DNA from: a bacterium
Lineage (GTDB): Bacteria > Oederibacteriota > PGYV01
Direction: 5' to 3'
Assembly: GCA_029565735.1 (NCBI GenBank)
Contig: JAKQNO010000032.1
Location: forward strand, 1,693 to 65,692
DNA: 64,000 nucleotides
The notes under the pieces were generated by a model. It was not told the DNA's origin. It was given only the letters and a program-made list of their open reading frames with translations, and did not search any database. This document shows, in pieces, positions 19,608-26,174 of the stretch. Position 1 is the first letter of the stretch. Each line of letters starts with the position of its first letter. The translations under genes and the position numbers were made by a program.

Positions 19608-20987
19608 ATGGAAACTGAAGGGTTAAAAAAGGGGATTATTCGCGCTGTAAGGGGCAGTGTTGTTGATGTCCTTTTTGAAAAACCCCTGCCTTTAATAAAT
19701 AATCTTATTTACACCGGCGAGAATAATTCCGTTCTGCTTGAAGCCGCGGAGCATATTGATGAACAAATTATCAGGTGCATTGCCCTTACTTCCGCGTCCG
19801 GTATTGGCAGGGGCGATGCGGCTTATGATTCCGGCGGGCCTGTTATGGTGCCGGTGGGCAAAAATGTTCTGGGGCGGATGTTTGACATGTTTGGCAATGA
19901 AACCGATAACCTGGGCGCGGCAAAATATTCCGAAAAGCGTTCAATTCACAGGGAGCCGCCAGCGTTAAGCGAAAGAAAAACATCCAATGAAATTTTTACA
20001 ACAGGGATAAAAGCTATTGACCTTCTTGTCCCTATTGAAAAAGGGGGTAAGGCCGGGCTGTTTGGCGGCGCGGGCGTGGGGAAAACAGTCCTGATAATGG
20101 AAATGATAAACAATACCGCCGTAAAGCACGGCGGCATAAGCGTGTTCTGCGGCATAGGCGAAAGAAGCAGGGAGGGCGAGGAATTATACAGGCAGATAAA
20201 AGGCGCGGGCGTGCTTGATAAGGCGCTTTTAGTTTTTGGGCAGATGAATGAACAGCCCGGCGCAAGGTTCCGCGCGGGCCACAGCGCGCTTACTATGGCG
20301 GAATATTTCAGGGATGACACGCGCACGGATGTGCTTATGCTTATTGACAATATTTTCAGGTTTGTGCAGGCGGGCGCCGAAGTGTCCGGCCTTATGGGGA
20401 AAATTCCGTCGCGCGTGGGTTATCAGCCCACTTTGGCAACGGAACTGGCGCAGCTTGAAGAACGCATCTGCAGCACGCAAAAGGGCGCAATCACTTCAAT
20501 ACAGGCGGTGTATGTTCCCGCCGATGATTTTACCGACCCGGCTGCCGTGCATACTTTCGGCCATTTAAGTTCCACCATCGTGCTTTCAAGAAAAATGGCG
20601 TCGCAGGGCCTTTATCCCGCCATTGAACCGCTTCTGTCAAAATCAAAAATGTTAACGCCGGAAATAGCGGGGAATGAACATTACATAACCGCCGCGGAAG
20701 TAAGAAAAACGCTTGCCGAGTACGAAGAACTTAAAGACATAATTGCCATGCTTGGCATGGAAGAACTTTCAAAGGCGGACAAGAAAACCGTAACGCGCGC
20801 AAGGCGGCTTGAAAGGTTTTTAACCCAGCCGTTTTTTGTATCCGGTAAATTTACGGGTACGCAGGGAAAACTTGTGGATGTAAAGGATACCATAGACGGC
20901 TGCCGCAGGATTTTAAATGATGAATTTGAAAACGTGAATGAAAAGGCCTTTTATATGATAGGTCCGGTTTCGGAGGTAATAAAATGA
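19608..20987 (+). CDS. atpD: F-type ATPase beta subunit (N-ATPase-type operon)
   Basis: P-loop GGAGVGKT and the DELSEED-region equivalents. 459 aa. First gene of the operon. Confidence 0.9.
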
Positions 20988-21373
20988 AGGTGAAAATATC
21001 GTCTTTAACCGGTTCTTTTGAAGCTGACGGCGTTTCAAAGTTAAAAGTTCCGGGAGAAAAAGGCCATTATACGATACTGCCTCATCATATTGATTATACA
21101 GCGCTTGTTTTTCCCGGCGTGCTTGCTTACATTGCGCAAAACGGGGAAGAAATGTATCTGGCTGTTGATGAAGGCGTGTTTGTTAAAAAAGGGTTTGATG
21201 TATTTTTGTCGTGCAGAAACCTGATTATAGGGGAGCCGGGGGCCCAAGAAAAAGAGTTAAAAGGGACAGTGCGCGACAAGTTTGAAACGCTTGACGAAAC
21301 AGAGAAAAAAACAAGGGAACTTATATCGCGGATGGAAAGCGATTTTGTCAGGCGCTTTCTGGAGATGAAATAA
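20984..21373 (+). CDS. atpC: ATP synthase epsilon subunit
   Basis: 129 aa, immediately after beta with a 4-nt overlap. N-terminal beta-sandwich pattern. Confidence 0.75.
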
Positions 21374-21374
21374 T

Positions 21375-21707
21375 ATGCCAAAAAGGGACAATGATTACAG
21401 GAAAGAATTCAGTGAGAAAATTGACGGGGAGATAGACAAAAAAGAGCAGGCCCAAAAAGCCGGCCGTGAAACAATCTATTGGATAGGCGTTATGGGTATA
21501 GTGGGATGGTCGGTTACGCTGCCTTTGCTGGGCGGGATTTTTCTGGGAAAGTGGATTGATGAAAATTTTCCCGGCAGGTATTCGTTTACATTAATGCTGA
21601 TGTTTTCAGGGCTGGTTCTTGGGTGCTGGAACGCGTGGTACTGGGTAAAAAAGGTAAGCCGGAACAGAAAAGCAAAAGAAACAGAGGGGGAAAAAAAGAA
21701 GGGATAA
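21375..21707 (+). CDS. atpQ: AtpQ / AtpZ-like small membrane protein (ATPase_gene1 family)
   Basis: GWSVTLPLLGGIFLGKWIDENFPGRYSFTLMLMFSGLVLG matches the AtpZ/gene-1 pattern. Sits between atpC and atpR, as in N-ATPase operons. Confidence 0.6.
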   Translation: MPKRDNDYRKEFSEKIDGEIDKKEQAQKAGRETIYWIGVMGIVGWSVTLPLLGGIFLGKWIDENFPGRYSFTLMLMFSGLVLGCWNAWYWVKKVSRNRKAKETEGEKKKG

Positions 21708-21717
21708 GGAGGGTTAT

Positions 21718-22980: not shown

Positions 22981-22983
22981 AAA

Positions 22984-23766
22984 ATGGAATTTGACCTGTT
23001 TACGTTCATAGCGCAGCTTATAAATTTTGCCATACTTGTCTTTCTGCTGAATAAGTTTTTATTCGGCAGGGTAAAAGCAGCCATGGATGAACGTGAAAAA
23101 AAGATTGCCGCCGGCATTGAAGCGGCCCAAAAGGCCGGCGCGGAAGCTGAAGAATCCGCGCGGCGCGCCGCTGAAGAACTGGCAAATCTTGAAAGCCGCA
23201 GGCAGGAAATGCTTGACGCTGCAAAAAAAGAGGCGCGGGATGAAGCTTTGCGGATTAAAGAGGCGTCGCGGAAAGAGGATGAGGAACAGAAAAAGAAATG
23301 GCATCTTGCGTTTGCCGCCGAACAGGACGATTACTTCAGAAAGCTTAAAGTGCATTCGGGAAGGTTTGCATGGATGGTTTCGGAAAAAATGCTGCGCGAG
23401 CTTTCCGGCGCGCAGATAGGCGAAAAAGCCGCGGAAATATTCGCGCGAAAAGTTGAAGAACTTGGCGAAAAAGAAGCATCCGGCTTCGCGGCCGCGGCAA
23501 ACAGGTCCCAAAAGCCGCTTGTAATTTTAAGTTCTTTTCCCGTTGACAGCGGGCAAAAAAACAGAATTGCGCTGCTTATGAAAGAAAAAGTGGGGTGCAA
23601 AAACGGGGTTGAATTCAGGCAGGACGCGGATATGGAATTCGGAATAGAGGCATCGGCCGAAGGTTACAGGATATCGTGGGGAGGAAAGGATTATACCGAA
23701 GCGATGCAGGACGAAGTGCTTGGTGTTTTTAAAAATGACAAAGGACAGGGCGGTTATGACGAATGA
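22984..23766 (+). CDS. atpF: ATP synthase b subunit with an extended C-terminal region (possible b-delta fusion)
   Basis: N-terminal transmembrane helix and a long charged coiled coil. The C-terminal ~90 aa ([28 protein letters not shown]...) resemble the C-terminus of a delta subunit (OSCP). No separate delta gene is present in the operon. Confidence 0.7.
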
Positions 23767-25315
23767 GAGCGGCGATATAAAAAGAAAGCTGGATAATATG
23801 CTTGATTCGGCTTTTACAGAGGCGGAAAAAAAGGCGCAGGGCATTAACGCGTCACTTGCTGCCGGTGAAACAGGCACGGTTATTGCCGTGGGAAGGGGCA
23901 TTTCTTCCGTTAAAGGGCTCTTTGGCGTTAAGTCCGATGAACTGATAAGTTTTCCCGGCGGAATATACGGCATAGCTTTTAATCTGGAGCCGGATTATGT
24001 ATCTGTGGTTATGCTTTCAAAAAGCGAAAGCGTATCCGCGGGAATGGAAGTAAAAAGGACGGGAAAAACCGTAAGCGTGCCGGCAGGCAATTCGCTGATA
24101 GGAAGGATAATTGACCCGCTTGGAAAACCGCTTGATGACGGGCCGGATATAAGCGCGGAAAAATGGTATCCCATAGAGCGGCCATCGCCTGTAATTATGG
24201 ACCGCGCGCCCGTGTCTGTGCCTTTGCAGACAGGGATACTTGCCATTGACGCGTTAATACCCATTGGCAGGGGGCAAAGGGAGCTGATTCTGGGCGACAG
24301 GCAGACAGGCAAGACCGCGGTCGCGGTTGACACGATAATAAATCAGCGCGGTAAAAATGTGATATGCGTTTACTGTTCCATAGGGCAGCAGAATTCCGCG
24401 GCCGCCAAAGTGATAGCCGCGCTTAAGGAATACGGCGCGATGGACTATACTTTTGTGGTGGCAGCCGGAGGGGACGACAGCCCGGGAATGAATTTTATAG
24501 CGCCTTATGCCGCCACTTCAATGGCGGAATTTTTTACGGAGCAGGGAAAAGATGTATTAATAGTTTACGACGATTTAAGCAAGCACGCCCGCTCTTACAG
24601 GGAGCTGTCGCTGCTGCAAAGAAGGCCGCCCGCAAGGGAGGCGTTTCCGGGCGATATTTTTTACATTCATTCAAGGCTGCTTGAAAGGGCCGCGCACTTA
24701 ACGGATAACAAAGGCGGCGGCTCGCTTACTGCGCTTCCTGTGGTTGAAACAGAGGCGCAGAATATAGCGGCTTATATACCCACAAACCTTGTATCCATAA
24801 CAGACGGCCAGATTTACCTTTCTCCAAAACTGTTTCAGCAGTCCGTGCTTCCGGCGGTTGATGTGGGAAAATCCGTGTCGCGCGTGGGCGGCGCGGCGCA
24901 GCTGCTGGCTTTCAGAAAAGAATCAGGGGATTTAAAACTTGCGTATTCGCAGTTTGAAGAATTGGAAATTTTTGAACGCTTTTCAACCAAGCTTGACGCT
25001 GAAACAAAAAAGACACTTGCGCGAGGCCACAGGATACGCGAAGTTTTAAAGCAGAAGCAGAGCAAACCTGTTCCGGTAACCGGGCAGATTGCGCTTTTAG
25101 CCGCGGTTAACAGCGGGCTTTTTGACGGTATTGATGAAAGCAAAGTATCGGCGGGCGCCGATGAAATAAGGTATAAAGTGGAAAATAAGCTTGGCAGCAT
25201 CGCGGAAAAAATTCAGTCAGGCGCGCAGTTTACTGATGAAGGCCGTGACGCTGTCCTTAAAGAAGCAAAAAGCCTTATAGCGGGCGCGCAGGAGGAAAAA
25301 GATGCGCCCGGCTGA
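23756..25315 (+). CDS. atpA: F-type ATPase alpha subunit
   Basis: P-loop GDRQTGKT. The start is ambiguous between the ATG at 23720 and the ATG at 23756 (ATGACGAATGA), which overlaps the atpF stop. Confidence 0.9.
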
Positions 25316-26174
25316 AGAGATAAAAAGAAAACTTACAGGCGCTGAATCTTTGCGGTCCATAGTAAGGACCATGAAAATACTTGCCGCGGTAAACGTAAGG
25401 CAGTATGAAAAAATGGCGGCAGAGGCGGATGATTATAATCTGGCTGTGGAAATGGGATTCAGCATATTTTTAAATCAAAATCCGTCAAAAGAATACGCGC
25501 CTTTGGCGCCGTCGGGAAAAAAGGGTTATATCATTTTAGGTTCGGATATGGGAATGTGCGGAAAATTCAATGAACTTTCGGCTGATTTTGCTTTGTCTGT
25601 TATAGAGGAACCGGAAAATGCTTTGGTTATGGCTGTGGGCGATAAAGTGGCGGGCAAGCTGGAAGACGCGGGTCTGGCGCCGGCTGATGTAATAATGTAT
25701 CCGGCTGTGCTGTCGGCGGGCATCGTGCCTATGCTGTGGGAGATATTAAACAAAGTTGAAACCTGGATGGAAAAACTTAATGTGAAGTCAATTGTGATAT
25801 GCCGTAATAAGCCGGCTGAATCAATGGGGTACGCGCCTGAAGCGAGGATGATACTTCCCATGGACCCGGCATATCTTGAAAAATTAAAAAGGACAGAATG
25901 GAAATCAAGAAGCATCCCGGTATATAAAGATGACAGGGAAAAACTTTTTTCAGGGCTTGTAAAAAACTACATATACGTGGCGCTTTACAGGGCGCTTGTG
26001 GAATCGCTTGTAAGTGAAAATACGGCAAGGCTTATTTCCATGCAGTCCGCGGAAAAACATACGGCTGAACGCATAGAAGAACTGACCCTTGAATACAATA
26101 TGGAAAGGCAGGATGCCATCACATCTGAAATACTTGACATCATCGCCGGCGCCGAAGCGGTAGAAGGGAAGTAA
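25302..26174 (+). CDS. atpG: ATP synthase gamma subunit
   Basis: 290 aa. Typical N- and C-terminal helices ([24 protein letters not shown]). Last gene of the operon. Confidence 0.85.

Follow-up and report, generated by a model that had tools for sequence, protein, structure and literature searches.

The stretch of DNA analysed here, 64,000 nucleotides of contig JAKQNO010000032.1 and hereafter called the window, carries nine open reading frames (ORFs) that lie back to back on the + strand at positions 19608-26174, in the order atpD-C-Q-R-B-E-F-A-G (Table 1). Each of the nine falls in its expected Pfam family. The P-loops of the beta and alpha subunits, the essential Arg of the a subunit (in LAVRLFGN, read from the atpB translation) and E63 of the c subunit are all intact. 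We are confident that the region is a complete and apparently functional operon for an N-type ATPase (N1No, or 'alternate F1F0', a subfamily of the rotary F-type ATPases), and we propose that its product is a pump, probably for H+. A preliminary description of this DNA had called it an N-ATPase-type operon of the order beta-epsilon-AtpQ-AtpR-a-c-b-alpha-gamma with no delta gene. The ORF map and the Pfam and NCBIfam matches gave the same order, as did independent gene calls on six other contigs with an identical beta subunit, which returned the same nine genes.

Table 1. Features of the N-type ATPase region, in window coordinates; scores are in bits and E marks an E-value
Feature	Position	Strand	Description	Family matches
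Upstream TAAGCA array (probable boundary element)	19262-19476	+	three 50-bp TAAGCA-rich tandem units (19273-19407) and an inverted tail	
Putative promoter and 5' leader	19508-19607	+	hexamers read by eye	
atpD	19608-20987	+	F1/N1 beta, 459 residues; P-loop GGAGVGKT intact	PF00006, PF02874, PF22919; TIGR03305 733.9 (canonical TIGR01039 631.6)
atpC	20984-21373	+	epsilon, 129 residues	PF02823 E 1.2e-11; NF004871 113; TIGR03166 97.9 (cutoff 100.1)
atpQ ('gene 1')	21375-21707	+	small membrane protein, 110 residues	PF09527 (ATPase_gene1) 48.5 (gathering score 26.6); TIGR02230 87 (cutoff 46.7)
atpR	21718-22020	+	100 residues, 3 predicted transmembrane segments	PF12966 42.7 (gathering score 26); TIGR03165 42.1 (cutoff 55.5)
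atpB	22010-22681	+	a subunit, 223 residues	TIGR03306 (altF1_A) 277.6; PF00119 E 8e-46
atpE	22702-22980	+	c subunit, 92 residues	TIGR03322 122.5; PF00137
atpF	22984-23766	+	long b subunit, 260 residues	TIGR03321; PF00430
atpA	23756-25315	+	alpha, 519 residues from ATG 23756; alternative starts ATG 23735, TTG 23720	PF00006, PF02874; TIGR03324 749.7 (cutoff 750.5; canonical TIGR00962 621.9)
atpG	25302-26174	+	gamma, 290 residues	PF00231 E 1.4e-54; TIGR03323 250.3 (canonical TIGR01146 135.4)
Downstream TAAGCA array (probable boundary element)	26173-26570	+	seven ~43-bp units of the same repeat (26173-26471) and an inverted tail	

We compared the scores of the ORFs against two sets of models, the NCBIfam N-type models (TIGR03305, TIGR03166, TIGR03306, TIGR03322, TIGR03321, TIGR03324 and TIGR03323 for the core subunits, with TIGR03165 and TIGR02230 for AtpR and AtpQ) and the canonical F-type TIGRFAM models. 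The N-type ('alt_F1F0') models outscored the canonical ones for all seven core subunits and were the top match for six of them; for epsilon, the N-type model was second behind NF004871. These scores and the presence of AtpR bear out the assignment to the N type. The alpha subunit was given 519, 526 or 530 residues by gene callers on other contigs. None of the ORFs in the operon matched the OSCP (delta) family of Pfam, and the genes abut or overlap, so that there is no space for a separate delta gene.

The two small ORFs, which the preliminary description had taken for members of the AtpQ and AtpR families, both matched the expected Pfam family above its gathering score. AtpQ keeps all family-conserved residues, with G41, G44-W45-S46, P50, G58, W60 and D62 aligning with those of N-ATPase homologs. 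The atpR gene is the 'tell-tale' gene of the class, and Dibrova et al. 2010 (PMC2881411) described its product as having three transmembrane (TM) segments, two of them with a conserved Arg. For the window's AtpR, TIGR03165 was the only NCBIfam match, and no relative was found in the PDB. When 21 homologs from the fetched N-ATPase loci were aligned, the conserved positions were R47 (TM2), G73-F74 and Arg78 (TM3), the last being Arg in 17 of the 21 sequences. It had been stated earlier that AtpR has an Arg in both helices. This is true of TM2, where R47 is conserved, whereas the family Arg of TM3 is Gln78 in the window, and another Arg, R66, lies only at the start of TM3. Gln78 is also found in both other Goldbacteria-like AtpR sequences (loci L032 and L034), and a Methanoperedens homolog has Lys at this position. 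From this alignment, Gln78 appears to be a modest departure from the family description.

The b subunit is composed of a TM helix, a long stalk helix, three short helices and an alpha/beta domain at about residues 167-251. TIGR03321 aligned with residues 1-245 (model positions 1-245 of 246), which makes the long tail a family trait. The tail had been described as delta/OSCP-like. With the b tail of the window itself, no direct match to the Pfam OSCP family was obtained, even at E up to 10. The tail of the b homolog P0007 matched PF00213 (OSCP) at positions 99-172 of 172 with an E-value of 1.5e-6. We also built a profile from ten b tails and searched it against PDB chains. The profile matched solved delta chains with E-values from 1.6e-5 to 0.05, and it did so in their C-terminal domains only (7p2y_d residues 98-176, E 1.6e-5; 9o19_W, E 6.8e-5; E. 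coli 5t4o_L, E 0.019), about b residues 167-246 corresponding to delta 98-176. The AlphaFold (AF2) model of b, with a mean predicted local distance difference test score (pLDDT) of 78.9, showed one long helix (5-124), then three short helices, and a tail (179-251) folded as beta-alpha-beta-beta-beta-alpha, in which the mean pLDDT of 10-residue blocks was mostly 83-91. Foldseek aligned this tail domain with bacterial, chloroplast and mitochondrial delta/OSCP chains over about 70 columns (root-mean-square deviation 3.1-3.6 A, probability 0.94-1.0). The homology of the b tail is limited to the C-terminal half of delta/OSCP; nothing in b corresponds to the helical bundle at the N-terminus of delta, which grips the alpha N-termini. 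The earlier claim of a delta-like tail was thus correct for the C-terminal domain and did not extend to the bundle.

Foldseek also aligned the whole b chain with V-type subunit E. Like V/A-type subunit E and mycobacterial b-delta, the window's b joins a long stalk helix and a head-contacting C-terminal globular domain in one polypeptide; the Foldseek matches for this architecture were 9cfc_I, 6wm4_H, 3v6i_A and 7jg8_d. However, mycobacterial b-delta carries full-length delta (about 445 aa), whereas the window's b carries only the C-terminal domain of delta, and V/A-type subunit E, unlike the window's b, has no membrane anchor. The best PDB matches of b and c were canonical F-type chains, and the search of a PDB copy returned no structure of an N-ATPase holoenzyme, which is a gap of the whole class and not of this locus.

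In the c subunit, helix 1 carries E30 and helix 2 carries E63-S64-L65-A-I-Y68. The residues quoted in the preliminary description, FGEMKA and IESLAIY, are present, and a Glu in the middle of helix 1 beside the helix-2 Glu is the N-ATPase trait. In that description, these residues were read as the Na+-ligand constellation and the enzyme was called Na+-translocating. We aligned the c subunit with those of Ilyobacter tartaricus (1yce), Fusobacterium nucleatum (3zk1) and others. The I. tartaricus positions Q/E32, V63 (a backbone ligand), E65, S66, T67 and Y70 correspond to E30, M61, E63, S64, L65 and Y68 of the window. The equivalents of Q/E32, E65, S/T66 and Y70 are therefore those of a Na+ site, whereas the Thr67 position, which is polar (S/T/Q/R) in the Na+ motif, is Leu65. 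The shorthand 'E-S-x3-Y' on which the Na+ claim was based skips this position, and the claim is not supported by the alignment; published criteria call such sites H+-specific.

The criteria come from several sources. In F. nucleatum, Thr67 and the carbonyl of Ala64 hold the water molecule that is the fifth Na+ ligand (PMC3692424), and the Thr67 position was polar in every Na+ enzyme predicted by Mulkidjanian 2008 (PMC2359735). According to ProAD 2025, any missing ligand makes an enzyme an H+ enzyme, a rule by which, of 1,807 N-ATPases, 893 are classed as H+ and 914 as Na+ enzymes (PMC11738941). The N-type ring of Burkholderia pseudomallei (E30/E61-T62-M63/Y66, ETMxxY), the only measured N-type c-ring without that Thr, showed no specific effect of Na+ and was judged H+-selective (PMC5376962). 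Because Leu65 stands at the Thr67 position, and given these rules and the selectivity of the B. pseudomallei ring, we infer from the ion-site residues, which were read directly, that the coupling ion is somewhat more likely to be H+ than Na+.

The Leu variant is common and predominates in this part of the N-type c family: 79 of the 120 closest homologs in a large database have E..ESLxxY and 23 have ESTxxY. Among the fetched N-type loci, many from Desulfobacterota have ESTxxY, the Goldbacteria-like clade and locus L036 have ESLxxY, and others have M, S or V in place of the Thr. In these loci, loss of AtpR Arg78 did not co-vary cleanly with the T67 substitution; L001, L002 and L005 (ESM) and L036 (ESL) keep Arg78 despite the substitution.

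When the locus was compared with known systems, every N-ATPase hallmark seen here had already been reported for the class by Dibrova, Galperin and Mulkidjanian 2010 (PMC2881411): the gene order, AtpR and AtpQ, the absence of delta, the long delta-tailed b and the second Glu in c. The locus is an ordinary addition to this well-catalogued class and not a new enzyme type. It differs from the defined N-ATPase in model scores slightly under the cutoffs, the Gln in AtpR, a c subunit without the Thr of ESTxxY and a Goldbacteria-like host. The N-ATPases predicted to use Na+ (Synechococcus PCC 7002, Acaryochloris marina and many Desulfobacterota) have the same operon and subunit families, but their c subunits show the full E...ESTxxY motif (PMC2881411), unlike that of the window. 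The Na+ c11 rings of F. nucleatum and I. tartaricus share E/Q32, E65, S66 and Y70 with the window and differ at T67; they belong to canonical F-type operons that have delta and lack AtpR. The B. pseudomallei N-type enzyme (c17 ring; Schulz et al. 2017) has the same operon type, a pair of carboxylates in its site and, where Thr67 would be, a non-polar residue, and the window differs from it in having Ser instead of Thr at the S66 position and Leu instead of Met beside it. Because the two-carboxylate site and the non-polar Thr67 position are shared, the B. pseudomallei ring is the best experimental proxy for the enzyme described here.

In the mechanism that we propose, a standard rotary one, ATP hydrolysis in the alpha3-beta3-gamma-epsilon head would turn gamma-epsilon and the c-ring against the a subunit, and one cation per c subunit would be moved across the membrane, so that ions are exported. 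The long b subunit would form the stator stalk, with its C-terminal domain replacing that of the missing delta, as in V/A-type subunit E. As small accessory proteins of the membrane, AtpQ and AtpR would probably help to assemble or regulate the c-ring. Most likely, the enzyme would run as an ATP-driven cation pump and not as the main ATP synthase. This direction is suggested by analogy, because N-ATPases accompany an F- or A-type enzyme in nearly all genomes (PMC2881411, PMC11738941) and because deleting the operon for the N-ATPase in Methanosarcina acetivorans did not visibly affect growth or ATP synthesis (PMC2881411). No literature on Goldbacteria ATPases was found.

Several points weigh against the interpretation of the locus as an H+-pumping N-ATPase. 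All seven alt_F1F0 scores fall just under the curated NCBIfam cutoffs (for b, 179.7 vs 224.7), and we therefore regard the operon as a divergent branch. The second family-conserved Arg of AtpR is replaced, as described above. The 'pump, not synthase' reading would hold by analogy. For rings with E..ESLxxY, Dibrova et al. (PMC2881411) argued that the missing ligand might come from the helix-1 Glu, which could provide two ligands when the Thr is absent, and that Na+ might then be bound. Finally, a membrane pyrophosphatase of predicted Na+ type is encoded 23 kb away (49397-51715, + strand, 772 residues; PF03030 845 bits, NF001952 989 bits). Its gate D-I-F-E-S (E6.53, S6.54) and GGAWDNAKK (A12.46) are the pattern of K+-dependent pyrophosphatases that pump Na+ or Na+/H+ (rule PMC5150537), which suggests that the organism may run a Na+ cycle whatever the ion of the N-ATPase.

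The last points bear on the strongest alternative, that the N-ATPase translocates Na+, with E30, E63, S64 and Y68 binding the ion as in F. nucleatum and ATP hydrolysis driving Na+ extrusion. Of the five side-chain positions that make up the Na+ site, four are conserved. Because the helix-1 Glu may compensate for the Thr and because the pyrophosphatase raises the possibility that Na+ is a coupling ion in this organism, we take this alternative seriously, though we consider it rather less probable. The residue that is lost, Thr67, is the one that positions the water ligand; all predicted Na+ enzymes are polar there, the ProAD rule would class the enzyme as H+, and the ETMxxY ring of B. pseudomallei behaved without a specific Na+ effect. 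An H+-coupled N-ATPase is therefore the reading that we prefer.

The nearest named homologs of b (55-58% identity) come from metagenome-assembled genomes (MAGs) of Candidatus Goldbacteria, and judging by such homologs the host is an uncultured Goldbacteria-like bacterium. An identical beta subunit was found on 18 contigs, including those of MAGs GCA_029554705.1, GCA_035393185.1 and GCA_035398105.1, and always within the same nine-gene operon. The operon is kept gene for gene in three other Goldbacteria-like genomes and in loci of Desulfobacterota, Nitrospirota, Planctomycetota and Methanoperedens. Upstream of the operon, window positions 14171-19258 are syntenic with HGW-Goldbacteria-1 (GCA_002839855.1; locus L032, 473-6323). 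The shared run consists of a TPR gene on the - strand, a GH9 cellulase gene and two tandem genes for LacI-family regulators; in HGW-Goldbacteria-1, a ParE toxin pair is inserted in it. This shared synteny argues that the operon was inherited in the lineage and is not a recent insertion. The genes downstream of the operon differ between the window and HGW-Goldbacteria-1. A third LacI gene lies at 32200-33216.

The operon stands between two arrays of a TAAGCA-rich repeat. The upstream array starts right after the stop codon of the second LacI gene and the downstream array at the stop codon of atpG; an inverted tail closes each array and lets it fold as a long hairpin (fold z -5.85 upstream and -4.76 downstream). 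The 27-nucleotide core of the repeat occurs only at these two places within the 64 kb. Strains differ in the number of copies, and several contigs end within an array. When metagenomes were scanned, the repeat family turned up on 78 stretches, among them many further contigs of the same samples; its usual place is right after a stop codon. In HGW-Goldbacteria-1, a single degenerate copy lies at each end of the operon. The arrays are probably dispersed transcription-unit boundary or terminator elements, similar to repetitive extragenic palindromic (REP) sequences or bacterial interspersed mosaic elements (BIME), and they are not specific to the ATPase. We rejected the idea that they mark a mobile cassette, given the presence of the repeat on many other contigs, including contigs of the operon-bearing sample, the conserved upstream synteny and the degenerate copies at both operon ends in HGW-Goldbacteria-1. 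An integron attC site was also rejected: although GTTAAGC agrees with GTTRRRY, a 7-mer match is trivial, the arms have the reverse polarity of attC and no integrase lies nearby.

Between the upstream array and atpD lies a candidate promoter, with TTGTTT (19510-19515) and TATACT (19533-19538) separated by a 17-nucleotide spacer. The candidate -35 hexamer fits only three of six consensus positions and was not listed by the consensus scan. The candidate promoter is followed by a possible upstream ORF of nine codons from ATG 19557 (MGRIHQTIL, then stop; MGRLHQKI... in relatives). We aligned this block with L032 6530-6640 and L034 90-200 and found that about 75 nucleotides are nearly invariant in three Goldbacteria-like operons, even though the b subunits encoded there share only 55-58% identity with that of the window. 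No riboswitch or leader (for example for Na+ or Li+) was matched in Rfam at gathering thresholds in the whole window; below the thresholds, 19200-19700 gave only meaningless miRNA and snoRNA matches. The conserved leader also had no stable fold (z -0.5 to +0.75). Because there is neither an Rfam match nor a stable RNA fold, the block may be a protein-binding site or may encode a leader peptide. Short tandem repeats with an 8-nucleotide period (CTGACCTT/CCGACCTT, AGCCGCCT, CCAAGCCT) were seen in intergenic DNA just upstream of promoters, at 19487-19510 and 46499-46534 of the window and at 262-408, 6453-6539 and 13560-13597 of L032.

A second alternative concerns the role of the enzyme. The N-ATPase might be the only rotary ATPase of the organism, in which case a fermentative anaerobe would have it as the main source of its membrane potential, or even as its ATP synthase. 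No other rotary ATPase gene was found in the 64-kb window or among the repeat-linked metagenome loci (532 kb, not confirmed to come from the same genome), many of which have the G+C content of the window and come from samples holding this or related organisms. Conservation of the operon within Goldbacteria-like genomes is vertical, and we keep this alternative in view because ProAD notes a lineage with the N-type enzyme alone, the Chloroflexota genus T78, in which most genomes have an H+-N-ATPase as the single rotary ATPase (PMC11738941). Nevertheless, we consider it unlikely, as N-ATPases accompany an F- or A-type enzyme nearly everywhere and only a small fraction of the genome, not chosen at random, was sampled. 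Slightly more doubtful still is the combined proposal that the N-ATPase is the sole rotary ATPase of the lineage and that its expression is governed by the conserved 75-nucleotide promoter/leader block. That the locus is instead a canonical F1Fo ATP synthase operon with rearranged genes, or a decaying relic, is very improbable: canonical F-type models match every core subunit and the alt_F1F0 scores are under their cutoffs, but against this stand the presence of AtpR, the lack of delta, the length of b, the consistently higher scores of the alternate models, nine intact ORFs and an operon kept across several Goldbacteria-like genomes.

Other genes of the window were also recorded. In HGW-Goldbacteria-1, an FGE-sulfatase family gene directly follows the ATPase operon. 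In the window, a block of ~16 kb lies between atpG and an FGE-sulfatase family gene (42089-43123). This block includes a giant ORF (34088-40381, + strand, 2097 residues) with internal tandem nucleotide repeats at 38566-39459 (periods 12-66). A secreted-looking protein encoded at 26662-28233 (+ strand) has Malectin and CBM9 domains, and its C-terminus looks, by eye, like a FlgD-Ig/T9SS-type sorting domain; another, encoded at 6623-10372 (+ strand), has a FlgD-Ig domain in Pfam. From their predicted domains, these two proteins and the GH9 gene would fit a polysaccharide-degrading lifestyle. An IS110-family transposase gene (PF01548, PF02371) is located at 10745-11746 on the - strand, in a local stretch of low G+C content (0.38).

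These results have consequences for annotation. Because the scores of the locus are under the alt_F1F0 cutoffs, automatic annotation would name generic F0F1 subunits and hide the N-type nature of the enzyme; the GenBank names seen for homologs were 'hypothetical protein' and 'F0F1 ATP synthase subunit C'. We suggest that the enzyme be labelled an N-type ATPase with the ion unassigned or predicted as H+, and not 'Na+-translocating'. The shorthand by which E-S-x3-Y and a helix-1 Glu are taken to mean Na+ is unsafe, because the Thr67 position must be read too. If the N-ATPase were the sole rotary ATPase of its host, a supposed accessory pump would be the principal converter of ATP to membrane potential, or the ATP synthase. 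For the family, a single biochemical test on an E..ESLxxY ring would identify the coupling ion of many catalogued enzymes.

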